Below the pieces are notes generated by a model. The model searched no databases and was not told the DNA's origin. It saw only the letters and a list, made by a program, of their open reading frames with translations. A stretch of 64,000 bases of DNA. Origin: an uncultured Acidobacteriota bacterium. GTDB taxonomy: Bacteria; Acidobacteriota; Thermoanaerobaculia; Multivoradales; UBA5704. Shown here piece by piece: positions 8,826 through 64,000 of this stretch (position 1 is the stretch's first letter; the number at the start of each line of letters is the position of its first letter). The stretch covers positions 4,512,001-4,576,000 of the forward strand of contig CAVYRF010000002.1 in the NCBI GenBank assembly GCA_963770895.1, read 5' to 3'. The position numbers were made by a program, and so were the translations under genes.

Positions 8826-8871
8826 GCGGGCAGCCTGGGGTCTTGTAGAATGAAGCGCGATTGAACCGACC

Positions 8872-31056: not shown

Positions 31057-33132
31057 TCAGTTATAGGGCGCGATCGCGGTGACCGTCCACGTTTCGCCGC
31101 CGATCTGGACGGTGCCGCCGACCGGCTGGTCGAGCAGCTGCTTGCCGAGATCGGCTTCGTAGGACAGGATGCCGTCTTCGGGGCGGCTCTCCCACGGACC
31201 GAGGATGGTGATGGTGCGCCTTTGGCCGCCGGCGCTGGCCAGGTGGACGCGGGCACCGATGCGCACCGCCGACAGGTCCATGGAGGTGGTGTCGATGGGA
31301 CGCACCCGCGACAGCTCGCCGTTGAGCGCCGCGGCGCGGGAGTTGAGGTATTCGTGGCGCGCCCGCGCCGATTTGTATTCGAAGTTCTCGCGCAGGTCGC
31401 CCAGGGCGCGGGCTTCTTCGATCGCCTTGCGATTGGCCGGGATCTCGACTTTCATGATCTGGTCGAGCTCGGCGCGCTTGGTGGTGATCGAATCGAGCGT
31501 CGCGTAGAGCGGCATTTCGATCTCTCGCCGCAGCGAGCGGAAGCGCAGCTCCAGGGCAGCCAGGAGCTGTTCGCGCTGGTAGGGCTCCAGGGCGGCGGCC
31601 CGCCGCACGGCGTCTTCGGCCTGCGGCGCCTGGTCTTCGGTCAGGTGGTTGAGCACCCGCGGCACGGTGCCGCCCGATTCGGCCAGCGCCAGCAGACGCA
31701 GCCGGAAGGTGGCGAATTCGTCGCGGTTCAGACTGTTGAGGATCTGCTGCAACAGGCGCAGCGGGTTGCGTCCGCGCAGCTCTTCGTCGGTGGCGGCCCG
31801 TTCGGCCAGCCAGGTGAAGGCGGACGGCTGCCGGTGTGGCTGGGTGACGAGGGTGTCGTAGAAGCGTTCCAGTTCCCGCGGCGCGCCCGCCGCCATGCCG
31901 GCCGCCAGGGTGTCCAGGGCGCGCGGGTCGGTTTCGCGCGCCAGGGCGTCACGGTAGACCGCCGGCCAGTCGGTGCGTCGCTCGCGCACCATCTGGTACG
32001 CCCGCTCGCGCAGCAGCCGCTCGTCGATGCCTTCGAACAGCCGGCCCAGGTCGCGCGCGGCGAGCAGCTGCTCGGGCGCCCACTCCAGCTGCAGCAGGTC
32101 TTCGGGCACGCCGCCGCTGCGTTCCAGGCCGAACCAGATCTCGAAGGCGAGGCCGGGGTCGCTGTCCACCGCGCCGGCGGCGACGCCTTCCAGATTGGCC
32201 GCCATGCGGTCGCGCAGGCCGCGGTCGCGCGCCCCTTCGCGCCGCAGCAGCTCCAGCTTGCGGCGCGGCGCGGCGCGCTCGAAGGCGCGCCACACGCTGT
32301 CCTGGGCGTCGCCGCTGCTTTCGGCCCAGGTGTAGGTCTGGCGCGCGCCGCTGCCGGCGGCCAGCACCTGCGGATGCTTGCGCGCCGCCCCCCACCACGA
32401 CGTCCATTGCCCCTCGCTGACGATGCCCGCCAGCACGTCGCGCACTTCCCCGGCGGTGAGCGGGCGGTCGAAGCTGCGCAGGGTGACGTGCAGCAGGTCG
32501 GGAGGCGACAGCGTCTTGAGGCCGGCCGGGTCCTCCAGCTTGCGCCGCAGCACGTGCGAGGTGGCGAGCGGGCGCAGCAGCTTCGCCGCCGCCTTGAACC
32601 CCACCATCAGGCCGCGGTGGCGCTCGAAATCGACCTTGAAGCTTTCCAGCCCCAGGTTGGCTTCGACGACCCGGCCCACCCCCTTGCCTTCCATCGCCAC
32701 CACGGTGCCGACGTCGAAGGCCAGCAGGTTTTCCAGGCGCTCCACCTTTTCCCAGGTCTTCGGCAGGTCGTGGGTGGCGCGCTGCAGGCCCGCCGCCTCG
32801 GACAGCCCTTTGAAGGTGGTGCGGTCGCCGTAGAGCTTGCTCAGCGTCGAAACGATCGCCGAATGGATCTTGTCCGCCGGCAGCAGCAGCGCCGCCGCCC
32901 GCCGCAGCAGGTCGAGGCGCACCGCCCAGCGGCCGTCGCGCAGCTGCTCGTCGAGCATCTCAAGCAGCGTCCGGGCGCGCTTTTCTTCGCCGTTGCCGGC
33001 CAGGGCGCGCGCCACGCCGACGAAGTAATCGAGGTCTTCGGGATTGTCGCCGATGCGCGCCAGCCAGTCGTTTTCGACGGCGTCGAAGTCGCCCTTGGCG
33101 AGGTGGTTCTGGGTCGTACGCGAGATCGCCAT
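31057..33132 (-). CDS. greA: long GreA/GreB-domain transcription elongation factor (~690 aa)
   Basis: C-terminal EIPANRKAIEEARALGDLRENFEYKSAR..TILGPWES..ILSY; ~530-aa N-terminal extension. Confidence 0.85.
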   Translation of the reverse strand: MAISRTTQNHLAKGDFDAVENDWLARIGDNPEDLDYFVGVARALAGNGEEKRARTLLEMLDEQLRDGRWAVRLDLLRRAAALLLPADKIHSAIVSTLSKLYGDRTTFKGLSEAAGLQRATHDLPKTWEKVERLENLLAFDVGTVVAMEGKGVGRVVEANLGLESFKVDFERHRGLMVGFKAAAKLLRPLATSHVLRRKLEDPAGLKTLSPPDLLHVTLRSFDRPLTAGEVRDVLAGIVSEGQWTSWWGAARKHPQVLAAGSGARQTYTWAESSGDAQDSVWRAFERAAPRRKLELLRREGARDRGLRDRMAANLEGVAAGAVDSDPGLAFEIWFGLERSGGVPEDLLQLEWAPEQLLAARDLGRLFEGIDERLLRERAYQMVRERRTDWPAVYRDALARETDPRALDTLAAGMAAGAPRELERFYDTLVTQPHRQPSAFTWLAERAATDEELRGRNPLRLLQQILNSLNRDEFATFRLRLLALAESGGTVPRVLNHLTEDQAPQAEDAVRRAAALEPYQREQLLAALELRFRSLRREIEMPLYATLDSITTKRAELDQIMKVEIPANRKAIEEARALGDLRENFEYKSARARHEYLNSRAAALNGELSRVRPIDTTSMDLSAVRIGARVHLASAGGQRRTITILGPWESRPEDGILSYEADLGKQLLDQPVGGTVQIGGETWTVTAIAPYN

Positions 33133-33230
33133 GCGGAGAAGGAAGATAGCAGATTGAGTTCTATAAGCTAGCCTCCCGGCCAATCGCGGGCCGGTCGCCG
33201 GGGGCCGGCGGGGAGCTGGAGCACAGACCG

Positions 33231-33968
33231 ATGGAGACCGGCGACGTCGAGCGCCGCCTGCTCGAGGCGGGCACCGAAGAGCTGCTGGCGCTGGTGCGCG
33301 AGCTGGGGGCCGCGCTGTCGCCAGCCGCCGCCCGCCAGGCGCTGCGCAACCCCTACGTGAGCGCCGAGGTGATCGCGGAGGTGGCGGCGCAGCCGCGCCT
33401 GGTGTCGTACTACGAGGTCCGCCGCGACCTGGCGCGGTGCCGCGTCACGCCCGAGCCGCTGGCGCTGCAGCTGGTCGCCGGCCTCTATTGGGCCGACCTG
33501 CTGGCGATCGGCCTGGACGCGCGCCTGCATCCCCGCCTGCGGCGTGCCGCCGACCAGTTCCTGCTGGCGCGCCTGCCGGGGATGTCGGTGGGGGAGAGGG
33601 TGGCGCTGGCCCGCCGCGCCAACCCGGCGGTCCTGGCGGTGCTGCGCCACGACCCGACGCCGCGGGTGATCGCCGCGCTGCTCGACAACCCACGCCTTAC
33701 CGAAGGGACGCTGGCGCCGGTGGTGGCCGCCGAACGCACCCCGGCGCCGGTCCTGGAGCTGATCGCCGCCGATCGCCGCTGGGGGGTGCGCTATCCGGTG
33801 CGCCTGGCGCTGGCCCGCAACCCCGCGACGCCGCCCGCGACCGCGCTGCGCCAGCTGGCGGCGCTGCGCAAGCCGGACCTGCGCGCCGTGGCGAGCGACC
33901 CGCGCCTGGCCGAACCGCTGCGCCGCCGCGCCCGCCTGCTGCTGGGAGACCTGGCCGGTGACGGATGA
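33231..33968 (+). CDS. hypothetical helical-repeat (LRV/HEAT-like) protein
   Basis: two copies of Y.VR..LA....TP...AL..(L/V)..L...DL motif. Confidence 0.75.
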   Translation: METGDVERRLLEAGTEELLALVRELGAALSPAAARQALRNPYVSAEVIAEVAAQPRLVSYYEVRRDLARCRVTPEPLALQLVAGLYWADLLAIGLDARLHPRLRRAADQFLLARLPGMSVGERVALARRANPAVLAVLRHDPTPRVIAALLDNPRLTEGTLAPVVAAERTPAPVLELIAADRRWGVRYPVRLALARNPATPPATALRQLAALRKPDLRAVASDPRLAEPLRRRARLLLGDLAGDG

Positions 33969-52075: not shown

Positions 52076-53926
52076 ATGGATCGAGACAGCACGGCCGCGG
52101 ACGCCCCGGACGCCCCATCCCGGGGCGCACCGGCATCACCGCCGGCCGCGGCAACCGCGGCCGGGCTCGCGGGCGCTGCGTCGCAAGACGCGGCGGCCCT
52201 TGCGGATGCCGCGGCGGCCCCGCCGCCTGCCCCGGCGGTCCCGCCCGCAGGCGCGGCCGGCGCGGGCGTGGCCGCCGAGGCGGGCGCCGGCGCCGGCGTT
52301 GGGATCGCGCCGCGGCGCGGCGGCGACGTCGCCCTGGCGGGATGGCTGCTGCTCGCGGGCCTGGTGGTGCTGGGCGTGGTGCTGCTCGGCGTGGCGGCGG
52401 CGCAGGGCGCGCCGGCGTGGCCGGCGTGGACGCTGGCGGGGGTGGGTGCGGCGGCGCTCGCCGCCCACGGCGGCCTGGTGCTGCGCTTCTTCCGCCGCCT
52501 CGAACAGCGCCTGCCGGCCCAGCAGGAGCGGCGCGAGCGCCTGGACGTCAGCCTGAGCGCCGCCTTTCAGCTGCTGGGCGCCGGCGACCTGGTGCGGGCG
52601 GCGGCGTCCAGCCAGGCGCTGCCGGGGCATCTGGCCGGCGTCTTCGCGGCGTCGGCCGAAGCGCTGTCGCGCCTGGCGCAGCAGATCCAGGACAGCTCGG
52701 TCGAAGTGGCGTCGACCGCCGACTCGGTCAACCAGGTCGCCTCCGACCTGGCGGCCGGCTCGGCGGAGCAGGCGGCGTCGGTGGTGGAGATCACCGCCGC
52801 CATGGAGGAGCTGGCGCGCACCGCCTCGCAGATCGCCGACAGCGCCTCGCGGCAAGCGGAAATGGCCGCCGCGGCGGAGGTGAGCGGCGACGCCGGCGCG
52901 GCGGCGGTGGGAGAAGCGGTGGCGGGCGTCGAGCAGGTGCAGCAGCGCATCAGCGCCATCGCCAGCCGCGCCGACGCGCTGGGCACGCGGTCCAAGGAGA
53001 TCTACCGGGTGCTCGACCTGATCACCGAGATCGCGCAGGAGACCCACATCCTGTCGCTCAACGCCGCCATCGAGGCGGTGGCGGCGGGGGTCGACGGGCG
53101 GCGTTTTTCGGTGGTGGCCGAAGAGGTGCGCCACCTCGCCCAGCGCTCGCAGGACTCGGTGAATTCGGTGCGCTCGCTGCTCGACGAGTTCGCGGGGTCG
53201 ATCCGCACCACGATCGTCGCCACCGAGGAGGGGAGCAAGGAGGCGAGCCGGGTGCTGGAACGCTCGCGCGCCGCGGCGGCGGCGATCGTCGAGCTGCGCC
53301 ACGCCTCCGCCGACACCTCGCGCGTGGCGCGCCAGATCTCGCTCGCCACCCAGCAGCAGAACGCCGCCTCCGACGAGGTGGTGATGACGCTGCGCGAGGT
53401 CAGCCTGGTGGTGCAGCGCATGACCGGCGGCCTCAAGGACCTGTCGGCCACTTCCGATCGTCTCAACGCGCTGGCGCTCAAGATCCAGCTGCTGGCGCAG
53501 TCGTTCCACCTGGATTCGCCGCGCTCGCTCAAGCACATGGTGGAGGCGTGGGCGGAGCGCACGCAGGCGGTGCCGGTCGCCGGCCGCCAGGAGGTGCTGG
53601 ACGAGCTGGTGCGCCGGACCCACTTCGTGGACCTGGCCTACTGGGTGGACGACCAGGGAATCATGAGCGCGCTGGCGGTCAATCCGGAAACCCTGGGCGC
53701 CCGGCCGGTGCTCGACCTGGCGCAGCTGCAGGACGTCGACCTGCGGCGGCGGCCGTGGTTCCGCAACGCCGAGCGCGAGCGCCGCACCGGCGTCACGGCA
53801 CCCTACCCTTCGATCCTCACCGGCGAGCAGTGCTTCACCGTCTGCGCCTGCATGACCCTGCCCGGCGGCGGCTTTGGCGGCGTGCTGGCCGTCGACATCA
53901 ACGTCACCGGCTGGACGCGGATCTGA
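52076..53926 (+). CDS. methyl-accepting chemotaxis protein 1 (2 TM + signalling domain + C-terminal Cache-like domain)
   Basis: ETHILSLNAAIEA..VVAEEVRHLA tip; C-terminal RPWF..APY..TG..GVLAVDI. Confidence 0.9.
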   Translation: MDRDSTAADAPDAPSRGAPASPPAAATAAGLAGAASQDAAALADAAAAPPPAPAVPPAGAAGAGVAAEAGAGAGVGIAPRRGGDVALAGWLLLAGLVVLGVVLLGVAAAQGAPAWPAWTLAGVGAAALAAHGGLVLRFFRRLEQRLPAQQERRERLDVSLSAAFQLLGAGDLVRAAASSQALPGHLAGVFAASAEALSRLAQQIQDSSVEVASTADSVNQVASDLAAGSAEQAASVVEITAAMEELARTASQIADSASRQAEMAAAAEVSGDAGAAAVGEAVAGVEQVQQRISAIASRADALGTRSKEIYRVLDLITEIAQETHILSLNAAIEAVAAGVDGRRFSVVAEEVRHLAQRSQDSVNSVRSLLDEFAGSIRTTIVATEEGSKEASRVLERSRAAAAAIVELRHASADTSRVARQISLATQQQNAASDEVVMTLREVSLVVQRMTGGLKDLSATSDRLNALALKIQLLAQSFHLDSPRSLKHMVEAWAERTQAVPVAGRQEVLDELVRRTHFVDLAYWVDDQGIMSALAVNPETLGARPVLDLAQLQDVDLRRRPWFRNAERERRTGVTAPYPSILTGEQCFTVCACMTLPGGGFGGVLAVDINVTGWTRI

Positions 53927-53951
53927 CGGAGCCAGCGGAGCGCTGCGGACG

Positions 53952-54464
53952 ATGATGGCCAGCAAGCCCTTACGCCCCGCCGATCCCGACCGGCCTGCCG
54001 CCGCCGGCGCCGGCGGTGTGCCAGGGGCGGCCGCGGGCGAATCGCGACAGGGTGAGGCGACCCACCTGCTGGTGCGGGCCGGCGAATACGTCTGCGCGCT
54101 GCCGCTGGCGGCGGTGCGCCGGGTGATGCGGGCGCTGCCGCTGCACCCGCTGCCGGGGTCGGCGCCCGAGCTCAAGGGATTGGCGGAGTTCAGCGGCGAC
54201 CCGCTGCCGGTCCTGGACCTGGCGCGGTTGGCGCGGGCGCCGCAGGGCGCCAACCCGGCCTGGCCGGTGACGGTGATCGCCTGGGCGGGGGCCGGCGCGA
54301 CGCGCGAGCTGGTCGGTCTCGCCGCCGACGCGGCGCTGGCGGTGACCCGCCTGGAGCCGGCCGACGTGGTGGGCGGCGACGGGCGCCTGGTGGCCGGCGA
54401 GGCGCTGGTGGCGGGCGAGCTGGTGCGGGTGATCGACCTGCAGGGGTTGGGGGAGGGATCGTGA
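53952..54464 (+). CDS. cheW: CheW adaptor
   Basis: ALPLAAVRRV..LPGSAPELKGL..GDPLPVLDL..VGLAAD..VIDL. Confidence 0.85.
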   Translation: MMASKPLRPADPDRPAAAGAGGVPGAAAGESRQGEATHLLVRAGEYVCALPLAAVRRVMRALPLHPLPGSAPELKGLAEFSGDPLPVLDLARLARAPQGANPAWPVTVIAWAGAGATRELVGLAADAALAVTRLEPADVVGGDGRLVAGEALVAGELVRVIDLQGLGEGS

Positions 54465-54823
54465 GCGGTGACGGCATCGGCATCGGCGTCCTGGTGTTGC
54501 GGCGCGACGGCGCCACCTGGGGGGTGGCGCACGGCGACGTGCGGGGGCTCGGGCGCGGCGCGGGCGGGGGGTTTGAGGTGACGGTGGCGGCGGGCGCGCT
54601 GGCGGCCGACGAGATCCTGGGGGTCGCGGCGCTGGCGTCGCCGCCGCTGCCGGCCGGTCCGGTGCTGCGCCGCTTCTGGCCCGAGGCGGCGCGCGGCCTG
54701 GCGGTGCACGGCACCCTGCCGCTGGTGCTCATCGACCCGGCGGCGCCGCCCGCCGCGCTGCGCGCCGGCGCCGGCCCCGGCGACGCCACCCGGCGGGAGG
54801 GAGATCGACGTGATGGCGACTGA
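54461..54823 (+). CDS. truncated/degenerate CheW-like protein
   Basis: WGV...V..ALAADEILGV..GLAV..LVLIDP; overlaps both neighbours. Confidence 0.6.
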   Translation: MSGDGIGIGVLVLRRDGATWGVAHGDVRGLGRGAGGGFEVTVAAGALAADEILGVAALASPPLPAGPVLRRFWPEAARGLAVHGTLPLVLIDPAAPPAALRAGAGPGDATRREGDRRDGD

Positions 54824-56444
54824 GCGGAGAGCGGACCCCACCGGCCGCGCCGTGGCCGGGCTCGGCCTGGCCTTTGGCGTCGCGGCGCTGGGCTACCTGC
54901 TGCTGGTGGTGGCGCGGGCGGCCGGGGCGCCCGGCTGGCTGCAGGACGTCTACCTGCTGGTGGCGGTGGCCGGGTTGTGGGTGTATTACGCCTTCGTCTA
55001 CCAGCCGCAGCTGGGACTGTGGGACCGCGTCGAGGCGGCGGAGCGGCGCAACCAGAGCGTCGAAACCAACCTGGCCGAGGCGCTCGACCTGCTGCGCAGC
55101 GGCGACCTGGTGGGGTCGCAGGCGCACTCCGAGGCGATGCACGACCAGCTGCGTCCGGCCTTCGCCAGCGCCACCGCCGCCCTGGACATGCTGGCGCAGC
55201 AGATCCAGGAGAGCTCGACGGAAGTCGCCGCCGCCGCCAATTCCGTCAACCAGATCGCCTCCGAGCTGGCTTCGGGCTCGTCGCAGCAGGCGGCGTCGGT
55301 GGTCGAGATCACCGCCGCCATGGAGCAGCTGGCGCGCACCGCTTCGCAGATCGCCGACAACGCCTCCAGCCAGGCCGAGCTGACCGGGCGGGCCGAGGAC
55401 AGCGGCGACAAGGGGGCGGAGGCGGTCGAAGAGGCGGTGGCCGGCATCGCCGAGGTGCAGAAGCGCATCGCCGGCATCGCCAGCCGCGCCGACATGCTGG
55501 GGGCGCGCTCGCAGGAGATCTACAGGGTCCTCGACCTGATCACCCACATCGCCGGCGAAACCCACATCCTGTCGCTCAACGCGGCGATCGAGGCGGCGGC
55601 GGCGGGCGACCACCACCGGCGCTTCACGGTGGTGGCCGAGGAGGTGCGGCGCCTGGCGCAGCGCTCGCAGGAGTCGGTCGAGTCGGTGCGCACGCTGCTC
55701 GACGAGTTCGCCGGCTCGATCCGCACCACCGTGGTGGCGACCGACGAGGGGAGCGTCGAGGCGGCGAGGGTGCTCGACCGGGCGCGCACCGCGGCGGCGG
55801 CGATCGAGCGCCTGCGCGGCGGCTCGGGCGACACGGCGCGGGTGGCGCGCGAGATCTCGCTCGCCACGCAGCAGCAAAACGCCGCCTCCGACGAGGTGGT
55901 GCTGACGCTCAAGGAGGTCAGCCAGGTGGTGCAGCGCATGGCCGAAGGCCTCAAGCGCTTCACCGACACCGCCGAGCGCCTCAACCGGCTGGGCCTGGCG
56001 ATCCAGATGGTGGCGCAGTCGTTCCACCTGGATTCGCCGCACTCGCTCAAGCACCTGTCGGAGACCTGGGCGCGCCGGGTGCAGCGCCGGCTGGGCAACT
56101 GGGACGCCATCGAGCGGCTGCTGGGCGAGCTGGTCAACCAGCAGCCCTATATCGAGTGCCTGTACTTTTTCGACGGCCGCAACAACCAGGTGGCGCTCAC
56201 CGTCAACCGCCAGCTGATCGGCGAGCGCGAGGTGCTCGGCGGGGTGAAGACGGGAGAGGGCTTCGCCAGCCGCCCCTGGTACCTGGCGGCGGTGCGCGAG
56301 CGGCGCACCGTGCTGACGCCGCTGTTCGACTCGCTGATCTCGGGCCAGTCGATCTTCACCGCCGCGACGCCGATCTACCACCGCGGCGAGCTGGCGGGCG
56401 TCCTCGGGCTGGACGTGAACGTCGACAGCTGGACCAAGATCTGA
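54810..56444 (+). CDS. methyl-accepting chemotaxis protein 2 (paralog of MCP1, C-terminal Cache-like domain)
   Basis: ETHILSLNAAIEA..VVAEEVRRLA; C-terminal RPWY..TPLFDS..TAATPI..GVLGLDV. Confidence 0.92.
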   Translation: MMATERRADPTGRAVAGLGLAFGVAALGYLLLVVARAAGAPGWLQDVYLLVAVAGLWVYYAFVYQPQLGLWDRVEAAERRNQSVETNLAEALDLLRSGDLVGSQAHSEAMHDQLRPAFASATAALDMLAQQIQESSTEVAAAANSVNQIASELASGSSQQAASVVEITAAMEQLARTASQIADNASSQAELTGRAEDSGDKGAEAVEEAVAGIAEVQKRIAGIASRADMLGARSQEIYRVLDLITHIAGETHILSLNAAIEAAAAGDHHRRFTVVAEEVRRLAQRSQESVESVRTLLDEFAGSIRTTVVATDEGSVEAARVLDRARTAAAAIERLRGGSGDTARVAREISLATQQQNAASDEVVLTLKEVSQVVQRMAEGLKRFTDTAERLNRLGLAIQMVAQSFHLDSPHSLKHLSETWARRVQRRLGNWDAIERLLGELVNQQPYIECLYFFDGRNNQVALTVNRQLIGEREVLGGVKTGEGFASRPWYLAAVRERRTVLTPLFDSLISGQSIFTAATPIYHRGELAGVLGLDVNVDSWTKI

Positions 56445-56496
56445 GGCAGTCAGGCGGCCCCACCGCCCGCTGCCAGGCCACCCGCGAGCCCAGCTC

Positions 56497-58746
56497 ATGG
56501 AAGAGGAATTTGCCGATCTAGTCCCGCTCTTCATCGAAGAGTCGCGCGAACGCCTCGACCGGCTGGCGCTGCTGCTGCCGCGCCTGGCGGACGACGAGCA
56601 GGCGGCGGTCGAGGCGCGCCGCGAGCTGCACACGCTCAAGGGCGCCGGCCGCATGATGCGCCTGGGCGCCTTCGCCGAGCTGTGCCACGCCGCCGAAGAG
56701 CTGCTGCACGGCGCGCGCGCCGGCACCTTGGCCGTGCCGGGGATCGTGCCGCTCCTGGTGCGCGCCCTGGACCGGCTGAGCGCGATGCTGGACGCCGTGG
56801 GGCAGGGGGACGGCGATCCGGCGCAGGACGCCGAGCTGATGGCCCAGCTGGCCGCGGCGCTGCCCGCCGCCGGCGCCGCCACCGCTGCCGGACCTGCCGG
56901 CGCTGCCGCGCCGCCCGCGGCGACCGTGGCGCCACGATCGCCAACATCGCCAACATCGCCAACATCGCCAACGTCGCCCGCAACGCCGGCACCGCTGGTA
57001 CCGCCAGCCGCGGCGGCCCCTTCGCCGGCGGCGGCCCCGGCCCTGGCGCCACGGCCGGCTGCGGTCGGGGGAGGGCGGCGCCTGGCCTCGGGCGAGGTGC
57101 GCATCGAGGCCGCGGCGCTCGACGAGGTGGCGGAGCGCGCCACCGAGGTGCGCATCCTGGCGCTGGCGTCGCGGCCGGTGGTGGAGCGGCTGTACGAGCT
57201 GGCGCGCTTGGCCGAAGAGGGGGTGCGCGAGCCGCAGCCGGCGCAGGTGCTGGCGGTGCTTGCGGCGGTGCTGCGCCGCACCGGCGTCGACCTGGAAGGC
57301 GGGCAGCACCGCCTGCTGCGCGCCGCCGAGGAGCAGCTGGACCGCGTGCTGCGCCTGCAGCTGCAGCCGCTGCGCGGGTCGCTGCTCGGTCTGGCGCGCT
57401 ACGCCCGCGAGCTGGGCCGCTCGCTCAAGCGCGAGGTCGAAGTGGTGGTGGAGGGAGAGGACACGCGCCTGGACCGGCGGATCGCGCGCGGCCTGGAGGA
57501 GGCGCTGCTGCACCTGGTGCGCAACGCCGTCGATCACGGCATCGAGGCGCCCGACGTGCGCGAGCGGCGGGGCAAGCCGCGCGCCGGGCGCATCCTGCTG
57601 CGCGCCATCGGCGAAAGCACGCGGGTGCGGCTGGAGATCGCCGACGACGGCGGCGGCATCGACCTGGCGCGGGTGCGCGAGCAGGCGGTGCGGGCGGGCC
57701 TGCTGGACAGCGCGGCGGCGGCGGCGGCCGCGGCGCCGCAGGAAGTGCTGCGGCTGCTCTTCGCCGCCGGCTTTTCGACGCGCGACAAGGTGTCCGAGAT
57801 CTCCGGCCGCGGCGTCGGGCTCGACGTCGTGGCCACGGCGGTCAACCGCGTCGGCGGCGAGGTTGCGCTCACCTCCGAGCCGGGCCGCGGCACCACGGTG
57901 GTGCTCGACGTGCCGGTGGCGCGCCGCGGCGAGCGGGTGCTGCTGGTGCAGGTCGGGGCGCTGCGCCTGGCGCTGCCCTCGGCCGGGGTGCGGCACGCCA
58001 GCCGCGTCGAGGCGGCGGCGGTGGTCGAGCGCGACGGCAGGACCCTGGCGCGCCTGGGCGACCGGCTGGTCCCCTGCGTGCCGCTCGGGCGCCTGCACGG
58101 GCAGGCGCCGGCGATCGCCCCGACCGCCGCGCAGCTGCTGCTCGAGGGCGTCGCTTCGGGGCTGCCCTTTGCCGTCCTGGTGGACGCCGTTTTGCAAGAA
58201 CAGGAAGTGCTGGTGCGCCCGATCACCCGCAAGGTGGCGACGGATCGCCTGCTCGACGGGCTGGCGCTGCTCGCCTCCGGCGAACCGGTCGGCGTGCTGT
58301 CGCCGGCCGTCCTGGCGCAGCGTGAATACCTGCGCGCCCTGCCGGCGGTCGAGGTGCGGGCGGCGCCGCGGCAGCGCCTGCGCGTCCTGCTGGTGGACGA
58401 TTCCTTGGTGACGCGCGAGATGGAGCGACGGCTGCTCGAAGACGCGGGCTTCGAGGTGGCGGCGGCGGGCGACGCCCTGGACGCGTTGTCGCGGCTGGGG
58501 GAGGAGAGCTTCGATTGCGTGGTGACCGACATCGAAATGCCCGGCATGGACGGTTTCGAGCTGACCGCGCAGCTGCGCGGCATGGAGCATTTCGCCCAGC
58601 TGCCGATCGTCGTGGTGTCGACCCGCGACCGGCCCGAAGATCGCCTGCGCGGCCTCAAGGCGGGCGCCGACGCCTATCTCACCAAGCAGAGCCTGGACGC
58701 CGGCGAGCTGGTCCACCTGGTGCGGCGCCTCAGCGGGCGCGGCTGA
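56497..58746 (+). CDS. cheA: hybrid CheA-REC histidine kinase (WspE/FrzE-like)
   Basis: Hpt RELHTLKG, HLVRNAVDHGIE, DDGGGID, GFST..SGRGVGLDVV, CheW-like domain, C-terminal REC (LVDDS, TDIEMPGMDG). Confidence 0.95.
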   Translation: MEEEFADLVPLFIEESRERLDRLALLLPRLADDEQAAVEARRELHTLKGAGRMMRLGAFAELCHAAEELLHGARAGTLAVPGIVPLLVRALDRLSAMLDAVGQGDGDPAQDAELMAQLAAALPAAGAATAAGPAGAAAPPAATVAPRSPTSPTSPTSPTSPATPAPLVPPAAAAPSPAAAPALAPRPAAVGGGRRLASGEVRIEAAALDEVAERATEVRILALASRPVVERLYELARLAEEGVREPQPAQVLAVLAAVLRRTGVDLEGGQHRLLRAAEEQLDRVLRLQLQPLRGSLLGLARYARELGRSLKREVEVVVEGEDTRLDRRIARGLEEALLHLVRNAVDHGIEAPDVRERRGKPRAGRILLRAIGESTRVRLEIADDGGGIDLARVREQAVRAGLLDSAAAAAAAAPQEVLRLLFAAGFSTRDKVSEISGRGVGLDVVATAVNRVGGEVALTSEPGRGTTVVLDVPVARRGERVLLVQVGALRLALPSAGVRHASRVEAAAVVERDGRTLARLGDRLVPCVPLGRLHGQAPAIAPTAAQLLLEGVASGLPFAVLVDAVLQEQEVLVRPITRKVATDRLLDGLALLASGEPVGVLSPAVLAQREYLRALPAVEVRAAPRQRLRVLLVDDSLVTREMERRLLEDAGFEVAAAGDALDALSRLGEESFDCVVTDIEMPGMDGFELTAQLRGMEHFAQLPIVVVSTRDRPEDRLRGLKAGADAYLTKQSLDAGELVHLVRRLSGRG
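56938..56973. repeat. 9-bp tandem repeat x4 (SPT repeats) in CheA linker
   Basis: TCGCCAACA x3 + TCGCCAACG. Confidence 0.85.
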
Positions 58747-58784
58747 CGCGCGTCGCGGCGCGGTGAAGCGGTGAAGGAGTCCTG

Positions 58785-59891
58785 GTGATCCGCGTCCTGC
58801 TGGTAGACGATTCGCCGTCGGTGCGCGCGGTGGTGCGGCGCTTCCTGGCGCGCACCCGCGACATCCAGGTCGTCGCCGAAGCGGTCGACGGCGCCCAGGC
58901 GGTGCAGGCCGTGCTCGACCACCTGCCGCACGTGGTGCTGATGGATCTGCAGATGCCGGTCATGGACGGCTACGCGGCGATCGAACGCATCATGGAGCTG
59001 CACCCGGTCCCCATCGTCGTGCTCTCCACCCGCGCCAACCGCAACCAGATGCGCACCGCCTTCGAAGCCATCCGGCGCGGCGCCATCGAAGTGCTGCCGA
59101 AGCCCGAGGACACCGGCAGCTGGGAAGGCCTGGCCGCCAGCCTGCCCGAGACGGTGCGCGCCGCCGCCGTGGCGCGCCCGCGCGTCATCGCGCGGCCCGG
59201 CGGCATGCCGGCGGCGGCGCCCCTGGCTGCCGCCGCGCGGCGGCCGCGCGCGCCGGCCGTCGCCGAGCGGGACTTGGGCGGCGGTGCCCCCGCCGTCGTG
59301 GTCCGCGCCGCGCCGCTGCGCTGGGTGCTGATCGGCGCTTCGACCGGCGGCCCGGCGGCGCTGCGCGAGCTGTTCGACGAGGTGGAGGCCGAGCCGCCGG
59401 TCAGCTTTCTGGTCGTGCAGCACATCGCCGCCGGCTTCGAGGCGGCGATGGCCGAATGGCTCAACAAGGAGCTGCCCCTGGACGTGCGCCTGGCGCGCGA
59501 CGCCGAGTCGCCCCGGCGGGGCGCCGTGCGCCTCGCCCCGGCCGGCGCGCACCTGCGCCTGGCCGCCGGCGGCGTCGTGCACCTCGACAGCAGGACGCCG
59601 GCGCGGCGCGGGCATCGCCCCTCGGTCGACGAGCTGTTCCTGTCGGCCGCCGCCAACTTCCCGCACGCGGCGGCCGGGGTGCTGCTCACCGGCATGGGCA
59701 CCGATGGGGTGGAAGGGCTGGAAGCGCTGCGCCGTGCCGGCTCCCTGACCCTGGTGCAGGACGAAGCCAGCTCGGTCGTCTACGGCATGCCGCGCGTCGC
59801 CCTGGAACGCGGCGCCGCCGACCTGGCCCAGCCGCCGCGCCAGCTGGCGCGCACCCTGGCGCTGCACTGGCGACAGCGGGAGCGCACCTGA
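58785..59891 (+). CDS. cheB: chemotaxis methylesterase (REC + CheB)
   Basis: VLLVDDS, MDLQMP, IGASTGGP, VVQHI, RPSVD, LTGMGTDG, VYGMP. Confidence 0.96.
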   Translation: MIRVLLVDDSPSVRAVVRRFLARTRDIQVVAEAVDGAQAVQAVLDHLPHVVLMDLQMPVMDGYAAIERIMELHPVPIVVLSTRANRNQMRTAFEAIRRGAIEVLPKPEDTGSWEGLAASLPETVRAAAVARPRVIARPGGMPAAAPLAAAARRPRAPAVAERDLGGGAPAVVVRAAPLRWVLIGASTGGPAALRELFDEVEAEPPVSFLVVQHIAAGFEAAMAEWLNKELPLDVRLARDAESPRRGAVRLAPAGAHLRLAAGGVVHLDSRTPARRGHRPSVDELFLSAAANFPHAAAGVLLTGMGTDGVEGLEALRRAGSLTLVQDEASSVVYGMPRVALERGAADLAQPPRQLARTLALHWRQRERT

Positions 59892-59902
59892 ACGAAGCGC
59901 GC

Positions 59903-61369
59903 ATGGCCAATATCGATCCCTTGGTCAACCAGCTGGCAGCGCTCATCCACAAGCGCACCGGCAACCTGGTGCCGGCGCCGCGCTTCGACTTCCTGGCCGA
60001 GCTGGCGGTGCGCCGCGCCCACGCCGTCGGCGCCAGGACCGCCGCCGACTACGTGCGCGCCCTGGCCGCCGGCGACCTGGCCGGCGAATGGGGCCACCTG
60101 GTGTCGCTGATCACCATCAAGGAGTCGTACTTCTACCGCGCCCCGCAGCAGTTCGAGGTGCTCACGCGCCAGCTCCTGCCGCGCCTGATCCGCGCCCGCG
60201 CCGCCACCCGCCGCCTGGTCGCCTGGTCCGCCGCCTGCGCCCGCGGCGAAGAAGCCGCCACCCTTGCCATGGTCCTGGCCGAGCACCCCGCCCTCGCCGG
60301 CTGGGACTGGAGCATCCTGGCCACCGACATCGACGAAGAGGCCCTGGCCGGCGCCCGCCGCGGCCTCTACGGTGAGCGCGCCGTCGCCCTGGTGCCGCCG
60401 CCCCTTGCCGCCCGCTACCTGATCCGGCGCGGCAAGCTCTTCGAGCTGGCGCCCCAGCTGCTGGCGCGCATCGACTACCGCCCGCTCAATCTCGCGCGGC
60501 CGCCCTTCGACCTGCCCGCCGAAGAGTACGACCTGATCCTGCTGCGCAACGTCCTGATCTACTTCGACCGCGCCCTGCAGAGCCGCGTCATGGCCCACGT
60601 CGCCCCCCGCCTGGCACCCAAGGGCCTGCTCTTCCTGGGAGCCTCCGAGACCCTGTGGCAGATCCAGGACGAGCTGGAAGCCCTGGACCTGGGCACCTGC
60701 TACGCCTACCGCCACCGCCGCGCGCGCCCCGCCCCCGGCGAGCCCGCCCCGCCGGCCCTCGCCGCCCCCCCGGCCGCGGCCGCGCCCGCGCGGCGGCCCC
60801 CGGTAGCGGGTGCTGCCGGCGCAGCGGGCGCGCCAGGCGACCTGCGTCCACCCGCCAGCGTCACGGTGGCCCGCAGGGCCGCGCCGCCGGCGGGCCGCGC
60901 GCCAAGCGGCCCCGCCGCCCCCGCGATCGGCGGAGCGCCCCCCGGCGCCGGAATGCCCGCGGCTCCCACCACCCCCGAGCTGCTGATCGCCGCCGCCCGC
61001 GAGCTGGTCGCCAACCGCCTGGATCCAGCGCGGCGCGCCGCCGACCTGGCCCTGAGCGCCGATCCCTCCGAACCTGCCTGCCACGTCCTGGACGGTTTCC
61101 TGCACGACCTGGCCGGCCAGACCGAAGAAGCCGTCACCGCCTACCGCGCCGCCCTCTACCTGGATCCGTCGCTCTTCCAGCCCCGCCTGCTGCTCGCCGA
61201 CTGCCTTCTCCGCCTGGGCCGCCGCGATCGTGCCGAGCACCAATACCGCGAGATCCTGGCCGCCCTGGACGCCGGCCGCGAACGCCAGCTCGCCCTGTTC
61301 GACAACCTCCCCCTGCCTGACCGCGACCGCGCCCTCCACCGCTGCCGCCAGGTCCTGAAAGCAACCTGA
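59903..61369 (+). CDS. cheR: chemotaxis methyltransferase with C-terminal TPR (WspC/FrzF-like)
   Basis: TIKESYFYR, WSAACARGEE, ATDID, RNVLIYF, LGASE; TPR with YRAALYLDP. Confidence 0.94.
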   Translation: MANIDPLVNQLAALIHKRTGNLVPAPRFDFLAELAVRRAHAVGARTAADYVRALAAGDLAGEWGHLVSLITIKESYFYRAPQQFEVLTRQLLPRLIRARAATRRLVAWSAACARGEEAATLAMVLAEHPALAGWDWSILATDIDEEALAGARRGLYGERAVALVPPPLAARYLIRRGKLFELAPQLLARIDYRPLNLARPPFDLPAEEYDLILLRNVLIYFDRALQSRVMAHVAPRLAPKGLLFLGASETLWQIQDELEALDLGTCYAYRHRRARPAPGEPAPPALAAPPAAAAPARRPPVAGAAGAAGAPGDLRPPASVTVARRAAPPAGRAPSGPAAPAIGGAPPGAGMPAAPTTPELLIAAARELVANRLDPARRAADLALSADPSEPACHVLDGFLHDLAGQTEEAVTAYRAALYLDPSLFQPRLLLADCLLRLGRRDRAEHQYREILAALDAGRERQLALFDNLPLPDRDRALHRCRQVLKAT

Positions 61370-61373
61370 CAGT

Positions 61374-61592
61374 ATGAGCGGCTTGACGGTTTTCGGGTTT
61401 TGCGCGGTGACCTTGATGTTGGTTTGCTACGCGTTCGAAGCGCGCGGGCGCGGGTGGATTCTGGGTTTTGCGGTGGCGTGCGCGCTCGGTTCTGCCTATG
61501 GATTTTTGCAAGGGGCGTGGCCCTTCGGCTTTGTGGAGGCCGTCTGGTCGGTGGTGGCGCTGCGGCGCTGGCAGAAGGCGGCGGGCGCGTAG
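61374..61592 (+). CDS. small hypothetical membrane protein
   Basis: 72 aa, 2-3 hydrophobic helices, YGFLQGAWPFGFVEAVW. Confidence 0.7.
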   Translation: MSGLTVFGFCAVTLMLVCYAFEARGRGWILGFAVACALGSAYGFLQGAWPFGFVEAVWSVVALRRWQKAAGA

Positions 61593-61596
61593 GTGA

Positions 61597-61977
61597 TCAG
61601 TCGCGGGCGCGAAACTGTTCGAAAAGAAGGTGAGCGGAATCGCGTGCTGCGGTCGGTGCGGTGATGGTGAGCCGAACGCTGTCCGCTTCGTTGTCGATCT
61701 GGAAGGTGAAGAACGGACAGCATTGCGCTTCGCGCTGCACCAGCTGGCGCACCTTCTCCGCTGCTTCAGCCGCATAGGTCAGCTCAAGCCGCAGGTCCTG
61801 GTGTCGATCGGCGCGCAGCGCCCTGCGGTTGAGATCGGCAATCCAGCGGACGCGCTCCTGATAGTCGGCCGCCCCCAGGCTGCACGCGATGGGTGGGCGG
61901 TGGGGTGGCTGAGGTTCCGTGCCGGACCCTGTTCCCGGCGGCGTGATTTCATTGTCGATCATCGAGAATTCGCCCAT
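61597..61977 (-). CDS. small Cys-motif protein (PIACSL...E..CCPFF), probable metal-binding
   Basis: motifs resemble the C-terminal domain of some MerR-type regulators; TAATG overlap with upstream caspase gene (alternative start 61962). Confidence 0.7.
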   Translation of the reverse strand: MGEFSMIDNEITPPGTGSGTEPQPPHRPPIACSLGAADYQERVRWIADLNRRALRADRHQDLRLELTYAAEAAEKVRQLVQREAQCCPFFTFQIDNEADSVRLTITAPTAARDSAHLLFEQFRARD

Positions 61978-64000
61978 TATTTTGTCCTCATGTTGTCAAA
62001 GTCCAATTCGCCGGTTGCAGCATGTGCGGTGCGTAGCTCGAAGTCGGCGAAGTCAAAGGTCGCAGTGCCGTTGTCGGCTTCGACGAAGATGCCCGCAAAC
62101 CCTGAGCGCCAGCTGGTTTTTATGGGAAAGCGATCGACTTGCTGGTCATTGATATAGGTGAAGATCTCATCACCTTTGCCTATGACGACCAAAGCATTGG
62201 TCCTCCCAGGTGGATGTATGGCCGTGCTGACAGTGAAGGGGCGGCGCAGGGTGTACTTCGGCCCGCCATCCGACACCACGCTGGAGACCTTGCCTGTGCT
62301 CAGTGCCACTTTGTAGACGTGACGGAAATCGTGACGCCAAAAGAACAGGCCGCCGACGGCACCTTGATTCCCTACGATCTGCGTAAGGTTCACTCTCAGA
62401 TAGAAATCGTCGCCTATCGCTGGAAGCGCCAAAGCCGTATCGTGTGCATCGCGATCTTTGGTTATAGAGAATCGCAGCACCCCGTCCGCAACGGTCGAAG
62501 ACACATAGGTGTTGTTCACCAGGTCCCATCCAGCGGCGAAGCCCTTCGCCAAGCCAGCGGCATCGGGAAATGAGAGCTGCCAGGACCGGGCTTCGGCCAG
62601 GAGCGCCTGCGCCGTTTCCTTGGTCCGTGCATTCTGCGACGCACTCGACGTTTGCGGCCCCGGCAGTTCCCCTTCGCGTTGTGATACCGCGTTGGTGCGT
62701 GGCGGCGGGGGTAGACCCTTGGCAAGACTGGCATCCTTGGTCCCTGCATTTTGCGACGTACTCGCCGTCAGCGGCCTTGCCGGTGCATCCTTTCGTTGTG
62801 ATTTCTCCCCGGTGCCTGGCAGTGGCAGAGTCCCGGCCGGACTGGCATCCGTGGGCGCGGCAAGCAATCTGGCCACTGGCGGTGAAAACCAGGAAACCAC
62901 AGTTATCAGGCCCATGGAAGCGGCCCAGACGACGATGCCGAAGATCAGGCATTTGAGCATCACCTGTGCAGCCTGGGTCGGAGATTGTTTTGCTCTCAAG
63001 TAGGTCAGACGGTCGGCGGGGAAGAGATCGAGCGGTGGACGGATCGGTGGGTGTTTCGCGGCGGCTGGTGCCGGAGCTTGAGTGGGCGTTGCGCCCGCCG
63101 ACGCCGGCGAGGTGGTGGGTACATTTACGGTCAAGGCTACGGCATCTGTGGCTGCCGCAGCCACCCCAGCGGACGTTGCTTCGGCGGTCTTTGCGGCGGC
63201 GGTTGTCGCGCCGGCCAGCACCTCGGCGGCGGCGGTGGCGACCCGCTTGCTGTCGTCGTTCAGGGCGTGCTGGGCGGCGATGCGCGCGGCGTCGCGGAGG
63301 GTGGGGTCGGGGCCGAGCAGGTAGCGGGGGAGCTCGCGGAGGGCGCCTTCGCGCACGCCGGCGAGCGAGCTGTCCAGGGCCTGGCGCAGCTCGACGGGCA
63401 GATCGGGAAGCGGCGGGCGCCAGCCGGGGCGCTGGGCGATGACCAGGGTGCCCTGCTGCTGGTAGGACCAGCGGCGGGGGTTCTGGCGCGGGTTCTCCTG
63501 CACCACCTGTTTGTGGACGTAGTTGTAGAGCTCGTCCAGGGTGACCTGACCGTCGTTGTCCAGGTCGGCTTCGCCGGTCTCCAGGCCGTGGATGAGGTGG
63601 CGGGTGAAGACGGACATGGTGAGCGCTTGGCCGGCGGCGACGACGTCTGCGGGCTCCCAGGCGCGTTCGGTGGAGCTGCTGGCGGTCAGGACGTAGCGGC
63701 CCAGGCCGTTTCCTTCGAAGGTTGTCGCGGGTATGGCGGATTGGCCCTTGGCGCCACGTTCGAAGGCGCCGCTGTAGCAGCAGTCGAGGATCAGGATCTG
63801 CCGGCGGGAGCGGCATTGGTCCATTTCGGCGGTGACGAAGCCGGCGGGGATGGCGGTGGCGGACAGAAAGTCGCTTTCGGTGTCCCGCACCGCCAGGTGC
63901 AGGGCGCCGCGGTCGTCGAGCAGGCCGTGGCCGGTGAAGTAGAGCAGCAGCAGGTCGTCGGGCGTGCGCTTGGCGAAGAAGCGCGCGACCTCGCGGCGGA
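61977..64000 (-). CDS. caspase-like (peptidase C14) protein with HEAT-like segment, TM helix and extracellular beta-rich domain; 5' end outside window
   Basis: open frame to the edge: LLLYFTGHGLLD (His) and ILILDCCYSG (Cys), SVFTRHLIHGL, QNP; TM CLIFGIVVWAASMGLITVVSWF; C-terminal ..TYINDQQV..GFAGIF..FDFADF. Confidence 0.88.
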   Translation of the reverse strand, partial: RREVARFFAKRTPDDLLLLYFTGHGLLDDRGALHLAVRDTESDFLSATAIPAGFVTAEMDQCRSRRQILILDCCYSGAFERGAKGQSAIPATTFEGNGLGRYVLTASSSTERAWEPADVVAAGQALTMSVFTRHLIHGLETGEADLDNDGQVTLDELYNYVHKQVVQENPRQNPRRWSYQQQGTLVIAQRPGWRPPLPDLPVELRQALDSSLAGVREGALRELPRYLLGPDPTLRDAARIAAQHALNDDSKRVATAAAEVLAGATTAAAKTAEATSAGVAAAATDAVALTVNVPTTSPASAGATPTQAPAPAAAKHPPIRPPLDLFPADRLTYLRAKQSPTQAAQVMLKCLIFGIVVWAASMGLITVVSWFSPPVARLLAAPTDASPAGTLPLPGTGEKSQRKDAPARPLTASTSQNAGTKDASLAKGLPPPPRTNAVSQREGELPGPQTSSASQNARTKETAQALLAEARSWQLSFPDAAGLAKGFAAGWDLVNNTYVSSTVADGVLRFSITKDRDAHDTALALPAIGDDFYLRVNLTQIVGNQGAVGGLFFWRHDFRHVYKVALSTGKVSSVVSDGGPKYTLRRPFTVSTAIHPPGRTNALVVIGKGDEIFTYINDQQVDRFPIKTSWRSGFAGIFVEADNGTATFDFADFELRTAHAATGELDFDNMRTK

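Follow-up and report, generated by a model that had tools for sequence, protein, structure and literature searches.

Near the end of the 64,000-nucleotide stretch of DNA analysed here (the window; G000:C2:4512001-4576000) lies the chemosensory operon of a soil acidobacterium, made up of seven co-directional genes, which abut or overlap and together span positions 52076-61369. The window comes from a genome of 8.16 Mb in three contigs with about 72% G+C, and its nearest relatives are labelled Thermoanaerobaculia, phylum Acidobacteriota. Reading frames and a Pfam scan give the order, along the plus strand, as MCP1-CheW-CheW'-MCP2-CheA/REC-CheB-CheR/TPR, in which the MCPs are methyl-accepting chemotaxis proteins, REC is a receiver domain and TPR stands for tetratricopeptide repeats. 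This gene order and domain content had been described in an earlier reading of the sequence (the first-pass annotation), with which the reading frames and Pfam matches agree. All seven frames are intact. A promoter and terminator scan of the operon on the plus strand returned nothing beyond the expectation from shuffled sequence.

The two receptors, MCP1 (52076..53926, +; 616 amino acids) and MCP2 (54810..56444, +; 544 amino acids), are built alike, each with a transmembrane (TM) hairpin, a HAMP-like linker, an MCPsignal domain and a C-terminal Cache-like domain. MCP1 additionally begins with an Ala/Pro-rich tail of about 85 residues ahead of the hairpin (52076-52330); its start codon is uncertain, the ATG at 52076 standing in a frame that is open from 51848. 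MCPsignal scores 92.1 bits in MCP1 (residues 262-443) and 96.2 bits in MCP2 (residues 194-373), the Pfam cut-off being 34.6. The proteins are paralogues, identical at 56% of positions across 533 residues; identity reaches 74% in the signalling bundle, 33% in the N-terminal membrane and linker part, and about 40% over the last ~145 residues. From its length alone, some 275 residues, the bundle is estimated to hold about 40 heptads. Between it and the membrane part, the translations show some 60 linker residues, among them a G-D-L motif; Pfam gave no match to HAMP, a domain that MCPs commonly have at this place without needing it.

By hydropathy the hairpin of MCP2 lies at 54846..55004 (+; residues ~13-65, loop of ~10 residues) and consists of two adjacent hydrophobic segments, residues 13-42 and 46-65. 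That of MCP1 was placed at 52331..52492 (+; residues ~86-139, loop of ~8 residues), with a strong TM1 and a weak TM2. Hydropathy detects a single strong segment here (~81-115), and the TM2 candidate, at about 1.3 on the Kyte-Doolittle scale by hand calculation, falls under the threshold of 1.5 and aligns with TM2 of MCP2. Adjacent N-terminal TM helices with a tiny periplasmic loop, as described earlier, agree with these profiles, TM2 of MCP1 being weak and taken from the alignment with MCP2.

The C-terminal domains comprise the last 150 residues of MCP1 (53474..53923, +), which ends in GWTRI, and the last 150 residues of MCP2 (55992..56441, +; P0001), which ends in SWTKI. Pfam dCache_1 matches that of MCP2 with 34.8 bits (E=1.7e-8, residues 435-539) and that of MCP1 with 15.7 bits (E=0.012, residues 511-610), both below the 45-bit cut-off, and MCP-like_PDC_1 scores 26.2 bits (MCP2) and 15.8 bits, both under its cut-off of 27. 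Homologues exceed the dCache/PDC cut-offs, for example P0144 with 58.7 bits and P0243 with 61.9 bits. An alignment of 35 C-terminal domains (A1) served as input for an AlphaFold2 model and a profile search. The model of the MCP2 domain has a predicted local distance difference test score (pLDDT) of 90.2 and a predicted template modelling score (pTM) of 0.86, and shows three N-terminal helices followed by strands, as in the PDC fold, where helices precede an alpha/beta core of PAS-like type. Foldseek returned 114 matches in the PDB at E<=0.001, the top rows being the dCache_1 ligand-binding domains of Mlp24, PctA/B/C, Tlp3, CtaA and KinD (E from 6.7e-8, query TM-score 0.53-0.74). Against PDB sequences the A1 profile found PctA (E=2.4e-12), KinD (2.6e-12) and the intracellular PAS-like domain of YkuI (2bas; E=3.9e-4). 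The match is confined to the membrane-distal module, which points to one Cache module, and the last ~150 residues of both receptors are modelled as folding into one Cache/PDC module. The C-terminal Cache/PDC domain announced by the first-pass annotation is thus borne out by the predicted fold, the Foldseek matches and the PctA profile hit, while in Pfam it remains sub-threshold. The sequence hallmarks listed with it (RPW[F/Y], Y/F-x-S and GVL..D[I/V]) are present, and the R, W, S and D residues are kept in 61/61 MCP1 and 77/78 MCP2 orthologues.

Cache domains typically sit outside the cytoplasm between two TM helices, which is not the case for the domain of either receptor, and 78% of them are predicted to be extracellular according to PMC4822843, where YkuI_C and Diacid_rec appear as the principally intracellular Cache families. 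One may therefore ask whether the domain is exported through an undetected TM helix and senses external ligands. The 78% figure would favour this, as would the highest 19-residue Kyte-Doolittle mean after the N-terminal region of MCP1, which is 1.50. That stretch, however, falls within a predicted beta-strand of the Cache domain and not ahead of it, and the corresponding maximum in MCP2 is only 1.11. A further membrane segment that would place the domain outside the cell was looked for by hydropathy, and none was seen between the signalling and C-terminal domains of either receptor; the domain directly follows the C-terminal helix of the bundle, and numerous homologues lack hydrophobic segments altogether. 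Export is hardly credible on these grounds. The C-terminal domain is instead placed in the cytoplasm, because the signalling domain must meet CheA and CheW in the cytoplasm and no TM helix comes after it, and also because TM-less homologues have the same domain order. The cytoplasmic location given in the earlier description is upheld by the same two observations.

The combination is not confined to this locus. A search with the 150-amino-acid domain against 1.84 billion representative sequences gave 151 clusters at E<=0.001. Eighty-four hits were at least 300 amino acids long, of which 68 were scanned with Pfam, the 16 left out matching mostly in the N-terminal part. MCPsignal was found in 67/68, and MCPsignal followed by dCache_1 or MCP-like_PDC_1 in 64/68; the remainder consisted of three proteins with MCPsignal alone and one without it. 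Several of the 68 also match YkuI_C. No hydrophobic segment of any kind occurs in 41/84 of the distant hits, some of which may be N-terminally truncated fragments, and from this we conclude that hairpin-anchored and soluble forms both exist. Among the soluble ones, named cases belong to Desulfarculus, Thermodesulfovibrio hydrogeniphilus, Thermodesulforhabdaceae and a metagenome-assembled genome of Pseudomonadota. In the sample of the window's own phylum, a match at E<=1e-10 was present in 11/401 genomes, that of the window included, and these are concentrated in a few families. One homologue, P0256 (902 amino acids), possesses a periplasmic dCache_2 domain as well as a Cache-like domain C-terminal of MCPsignal, and would sense on both sides of the membrane. 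MCPsignal with a C-terminal Cache domain is thus widespread, in several phyla and in membrane-anchored and soluble forms, and is apparently uncharacterised: in the literature within reach of our search, which excludes most subscription journals, neither a C-terminal Cache domain on an MCP nor a Wsp-like use of one was found.

The amino-acid motif of PctA, as given in PMC8915833, is composed of Y121, R126 and W128, which contact the ligand's carboxyl group, and Y144 and D173, which contact the amino group. Pocket positions were mapped onto PctA by HMMER alignment for 61 MCP1 and 78 MCP2 orthologues. The equivalents of R126, W128 and D173 are each retained in 61/61 MCP1 and 77/78 MCP2 sequences, so that the core Arg/Trp/Asp trio is kept in both paralogue families. 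At the position of Y121, MCP1 has T, I, V or R and never Tyr, and in MCP2 the residue is deleted in all; the published dCache_1AA motif (AA_motif) is consequently incomplete in all 139 sequences. The families differ systematically at two positions of the motif region. At D122, MCP1 has D (60/61) and MCP2 has G (77/78); at the motif residue Y144, MCP1 has Y (61/61), while MCP2 has F in 63/78, including the MCP2 of the window, and Y in 14/78. Because of these systematic differences the two Cache modules probably bind different ligands, and MCP1 and MCP2 could be sensors of related yet distinct small metabolites bearing a carboxylate or an amine. Within a locus, the paralogues are 0.39 identical in the Cache domain versus 0.77 in the signalling domain (n=60), and identity of the Cache domain among orthologues is 0.55 for MCP1 and 0.69 for MCP2. 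Paralogues have thus drifted apart more quickly in the Cache domain than in the signalling domain, but among orthologues the Cache domain is conserved.

The extreme C-terminus is also highly conserved, reading GWTRI in 48/61 MCP1 and SWTKI in 66/78 MCP2 orthologues. It is this feature that could make the Cache-like domain a protein-interaction module, which docks CheR-TPR or CheB as an analogue of the NWETF tether or helps in packing the array. The Trp at position -4 and the hydrophobic last residue are, we presume, reminiscent of NWETF-type pentapeptides; the CheR of the operon does carry TPR repeats. The W-T-K/R-I element is, however, inside the folded domain (predicted helix 144-148, pLDDT 89 in the last block); it aligns with the helix after the last strand in PctA, and no flexible linker precedes it. 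Soluble homologues end otherwise yet keep the R/W/S/D pocket positions, and the conserved positions coincide with ligand contacts in solved dCache_1 sensors. We regard a purely docking or packing role as unlikely, and binding of small metabolites as the better account of the conserved residues, since in dCache_1 amino-acid sensors the Arg/Trp/Asp trio holds the carboxyl and amino groups of the ligand.

The remaining genes encode couplers, a kinase and adaptation enzymes. CheW (53952..54464, +; 170 amino acids) matches PF01584 with 54.6 bits. CheW' (54461..54823, +; 120 amino acids), the start of which overlaps the CheW stop by 4 nucleotides (nt), had been labelled a second CheW; by sequence the label fails, but by fold it holds. 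There is no Pfam or NCBIfam match to CheW', and its comparison with the CheW profile in hhalign gave a probability of 5.6%. It has 258 homologues at E<=0.001; among the 120 listed none carries a Pfam domain, and those that are named are called "hypothetical protein". Its AlphaFold2 model, built from 47 sequences, is all-beta with a pLDDT of 83.5. In Foldseek, each of the 18 best-ranked matches listed is a CheW or CheA entry, and the chains from CheA hold P5. In a structural search against representatives, five CheW/P5 chains gave Z 9.7, 9.6, 9.3, 7.6 and 6.2 over 90-95 residues, the next-best chain reaching Z 2.7; the best match is CheW 2qdl (Z 9.7, root-mean-square deviation 2.6, 91 residues). 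According to this model CheW' is a minimal CheW-fold protein, its compact fold measuring ~95 residues.

The hybrid CheA (56497..58746, +; 749 amino acids) consists of Hpt (51.6 bits), an Ala/Pro-rich linker, HATPase_c (64.4 bits), a CheW-like P5 (32.9 bits) and a C-terminal REC (92 bits, residues 630-742). Within the linker, the low-complexity stretch at 56938-56979 repeats SPT four to five times. CheB (58785..59891, +; 368 amino acids) has an N-terminal REC (76.6 bits) and a methylesterase domain (CheB_methylest, 189 bits). The translations show the Asp/Thr/Lys residues of the CheA REC, and in CheB the motif GASTGGP. CheR (59903..61369, +; 488 amino acids) is a methyltransferase (151 bits) with C-terminal TPR repeats, to which several models match at residues ~376-455, none of them reaching its cut-off. 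Against NCBIfam, the operon proteins gave only generic CheA, CheB, CheR and MCP matches under the equivalog cut-offs, and no pathway class.

The spacer between CheB and CheR (59892..59902, +) is only 11 nt long, CheB stopping at 59891 and CheR starting at 59903, and the operon has no output gene, as the first-pass annotation had stated. In relatives this is the site of a gene of ~1.45 kb. Eighty related loci were collected and the seven window proteins mapped onto them; in 44 loci, more than share any other order, the genes run MCP1-CheW-CheW'-MCP2-CheA-CheB-X-CheR. In locus L010 (14848-16284), X encodes a protein of 479 amino acids, in which a REC domain scores 80.9 bits and a GGDEF domain 141 bits. 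In its translation an RxxD site stands five residues upstream of GGEEF, and the Asp/Thr/Lys residues of REC are there. The linker between REC and GGDEF in the relatives' cyclase is about 190 residues long. Among the 61 sequences in which both CheB and CheR can be seen (60 loci and the window), 51 have a REC-GGDEF gene between them and 10 do not. The latter are seven loci with a single MCP (L058, L061, L062, L070, L072, L074 and L077), the window, L003 and L071. As relatives' operons encode a REC-linker-GGDEF regulator, the ancestral output would have been synthesis of cyclic di-GMP (c-di-GMP), as in Wsp. The REC-GGDEF response regulator is the defining output of Wsp-like pathways of the alternative cellular function (ACF) type. 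The operon had earlier been put forward as a candidate for an undescribed system. This is not supported, for 51/61 loci keep the REC-GGDEF gene, which marks a Wsp-like ACF pathway, and the absence of an output reads as a secondary loss in the subclade of the window and not as a design feature.

The loss can be placed on a FastTree tree of 139 MCP1 and MCP2 sequences with Shimodaira-Hasegawa-like supports, rooted at the midpoint only. The MCP2 of the window belongs to a subclade of eight sequences (support 99), nested among the cyclase-bearing L053, a clade of 51 sequences, and L059 and its kin. The cyclase is missing from each of the three whose junction can be seen (the window, L003 and L071); the other five are short contigs that do not show it. 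Because of this nesting, the simplest reading of the tree is one secondary loss of the REC-GGDEF gene in the window subclade. The single-MCP group, arranged CheW-CheW'-MCP-CheA-CheB-CheR without REC-GGDEF, branches deepest among the MCP2 sequences. The genes flanking the cyclase-less operons code for a FadL-like porin, DUF4388-TPR, CHAD, Memo, peptidases and TIR-PIN proteins, none of them common to these operons. Public contigs from four runs over 58500-61400 (41-635 nt) include none that spans the CheB-CheR junction with 31 letters on each side, the nearest piece ending at 59898; the 11-nt junction therefore rests on the assembly and on the identical adjacency in L003 and L071.

The cyclase was also sought elsewhere in the genome. 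The L010 cyclase found no full-length match. In tblastn, its REC, linker and GGDEF parts gave 42 matches to REC and 15 to GGDEF, the linker region remaining unmatched, and no REC was found within 1.5 kb upstream of a GGDEF on the same strand, so that no REC-GGDEF gene was seen. The best GGDEF match belongs to a multi-TM protein with a GAF-like stretch discernible by eye and no REC, and is not the relocated cyclase. Neither are five further top GGDEF proteins, with GAF, FHA or other N-termini and no REC, nor the REC closest to that of the cyclase, which belongs to an OmpR-type regulator.

In total the genome encodes three MCPs and two CheA proteins. A second che cluster (L087, G000:C2:4763437-4773395) is located ~200 kb downstream of the window and comprises a CheA without REC, a 410-amino-acid CheW with a long N-terminal extension, an MCP with HAMP, CheR and CheB, together with genes for proteins of 148 and 692 amino acids without Pfam match and a divergent single-domain REC (CheY). 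No match to FliG was found in the genome (completeness 94.95%), and both chemosensory systems sit in an apparently non-flagellated organism. The lack of FliG would suit a pathway that acts on type IV pili, with motility controlled by way of the window's PilT-like ATPase, which had been put forward as an output candidate; ten matches to T2SSE-family (PilB/PilT/GspE-type) ATPases are present in the genome, one of them in the window at ~8854-10287. The candidate did not hold up. The ATPase is ~42 kb upstream, with unrelated genes between, and is one of 10 in the genome; no T2SSE-family gene occurs among the scanned flanks of six related loci, relatives encode a GGDEF output, and motility could be served by the second che cluster, which is complete and has a CheY of its own. 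Control of pili through this ATPase is very improbable.

A cyclase-less operon may also be a functionless remnant heading for decay, consistent with the lack of an output gene in the operon and of any REC-GGDEF gene seen in the genome. Against this, all frames are intact, CheA has its REC residues and CheB its GASTGGP motif in the translations, and the receptors retain their pocket residues. For all seven genes the ratio of non-synonymous to synonymous substitution rates (dN/dS, NG86), compared between the window and L003 or L071, both cyclase-less, is 0.20-0.51, a rough estimate in which extreme third-position GC bias may depress dS. No value suggests relaxed selection among these three cyclase-less lineages, and the seven genes appear to be under purifying selection. 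In addition, the core has been kept in the seven loci of another clade, which carry no cyclase gene. Decay is accordingly an improbable account of the operon, and a pathway that outlived the loss of its cyclase fits these observations better.

The surroundings of the operon and the rest of the window hold some features of their own. Upstream is a divergent M13 peptidase gene, whose leader near 51800 (-) holds APAT repeats. Downstream of CheR, a frame of 637 amino acids without Pfam match occupies 61977-63890 (-), where G+C falls to 65%. Memo-like and AMMECR1 genes lie 3′ of CheR in L010, and a Memo-like gene in L003; the downstream neighbourhood in the window differs. At 31057-33444 (-), the GreA/GreB N- and C-terminal domains of a 795-amino-acid frame are confined to its C-terminal end (residues 648-789), preceded by ~640 residues without Pfam match.

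With respect to pathway class, the window has three features of Wsp-like ACF systems, namely CheA-REC, CheR-TPR and two CheW-type couplers, and is missing the in-cluster multidomain response regulator (REC-GGDEF). The Wsp/Frz-like layout recognised earlier is supported by CheA-REC, CheR-TPR, CheB and the two CheW-fold couplers. In PMC3447774, CheR-TPR genes are described as lying for the most part in ACF clusters whose response regulators are multidomain proteins, REC-GGDEF among them. Likeness to a characterised class is nevertheless partial: the relatives have the Wsp-like output, but the whole does not coincide with Wsp. The Wsp system of Pseudomonas (WspA-F and WspR) shares CheA-REC, CheB, CheR-TPR, two CheW-fold couplers and, in 51/61 loci, REC-GGDEF. 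The receptors described here differ from WspA in having no periplasmic domain and a C-terminal cytoplasmic Cache domain; there are two paralogous receptors, the gene order is another, and the second coupler is without sequence match. The relatives' cyclase differs in its ~190-residue REC-GGDEF linker, and the window has no cyclase gene.

The Che3 cluster of Myxococcus xanthus offers the best analogy for an operon without its own output. In PMC3147164, it is reported to contain two MCPs, CheW, CheA, CheB and CheR and no CheY, and its output is the response regulator CrdA, an NtrC homologue outside the core set. Two MCPs and the absence of an in-cluster CheY are shared with the window; the output of Che3 is known, whereas none has been identified in the window genome. 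HtChe2 of Halomonas titanicae is, according to a preprint (bioRxiv 10.1101/2024.04.09.588698), a Wsp-like cluster that controls a diguanylate cyclase, with a receptor, Htc10, that binds purines. The same text presents this as the first ligand for a receptor of a Wsp-like pathway, and stimulation of WspA as still viewed as surface sensing independent of its ligand-binding domain. A Wsp-like cluster and a Cache-type receptor domain are common to both systems; Htc10 has a double Cache domain, periplasmic between two TM helices, in contrast to the single, C-terminal and cytoplasmic one here.

C-terminal sensors on MCPs are already known, and what differs here is a Cache domain in that position. 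PMC3604760 places PilZ at the C-terminus of Tlp1 and speaks of "several hundred" receptors with other C-terminal domains; Cache_1 is among the domains drawn in its Fig. 8, the legend of which does not state on which side of MCPsignal. Hemerythrin is C-terminal in DcrH (PMC9388753) and CZB in TlpD and McpA (PMC13001251). Tlp1, DcrH, TlpD and McpA share a cytoplasmic sensor fused after the signalling domain, and the Cache/PDC type of the domain sets the present receptors apart. PctA, Mlp24, Tlp3 and CtaA resemble them in the fold and in the equivalents of R126, W128 and D173, the match being to the membrane-distal module. In comparison with dCache_1 sensors, the receptors of the window have one module and not two, the module is cytoplasmic, and it is attached through helices at its N-terminal side and not through a C-terminal TM helix; from the dCache_1 amino-acid sensors they differ further in the missing Y121 equivalent, which leaves the published motif incomplete. 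YkuI_C, listed as an intracellular Cache family in PMC4822843, provides a likeness in cellular location.

Taken together, the locus is best explained as a Wsp-like (ACF-type) pathway with cytoplasmic Cache receptors, from which the cyclase has been lost in the window subclade; we put the probability of this explanation at roughly two in three. The pathway would be conserved in Thermoanaerobaculia and in Holophagales-labelled Acidobacteriota. Both paralogous receptors would be tethered by a TM hairpin with a near-zero periplasmic loop, and a single Cache/PDC module would be fused to the C-terminal helix of each signalling bundle. Since the bundle is an antiparallel hairpin, this would put the module at the membrane-proximal, input end in the cytoplasm. 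There the modules may bind small cytoplasmic metabolites, and ligand occupancy would reach CheA-REC by way of the bundle's C-terminal helix and control it. CheW and the compact CheW-fold protein would hold CheA-REC in an array, and CheB and CheR-TPR would provide methylation-based adaptation. In the window subclade, the cyclase gene would have been cleanly removed and the pathway still maintained, its output being either encoded elsewhere, as an orphan response regulator in the manner of Che3 and CrdA, or provided by the REC of CheA itself.

Several points weigh against this explanation. The Cache matches of the window fall short of the Pfam cut-offs (34.8 versus 45 and 26.2 versus 27 bits), TM2 of MCP1 is only weakly hydrophobic and would be placed by its alignment to TM2 of MCP2, and HAMP has no Pfam match at E<=0.1 in either receptor. 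Ligand binding is argued from conserved residues, and one residue of the amino-acid motif, the Y121 equivalent, is missing. The Wsp-like, ACF-type class of the family is judged by domain content and not by CheA phylogeny, and the tree from which the loss is read has only a midpoint root. Seven deep-branching single-MCP loci have no REC-GGDEF either, so that the core module may originally have had an output other than c-di-GMP. No output gene can be named in the window genome, and the dN/dS values are subject to the bias given above.

What the window itself contributes is an operon that has lost its c-di-GMP output and is otherwise maintained. Cyclase-bearing and cyclase-less operons form a natural series for comparing the way in which chemosensory cores switch outputs. 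The Cache module is soluble and compact, has a confident model, and lends itself to expression by itself and to ligand screening; in most relatives it is paired with c-di-GMP as a direct read-out. In these receptors a dCache_1-type Arg/Trp/Asp pocket would be used inside the cell, at the end of the bundle opposite the usual input, and this attachment bears on how chemoreceptor bundles accept signals. As a general mode, which we offer tentatively and hold to be possible but doubtful, a C-terminal Cache domain would let arrays read the cell's own metabolite pools through the bundle helix and not through TM2 and HAMP, with the two different pockets in Thermoanaerobaculia setting c-di-GMP levels through a Wsp-like pathway and the lineage of the window having been rewired to another output after the loss of its cyclase.

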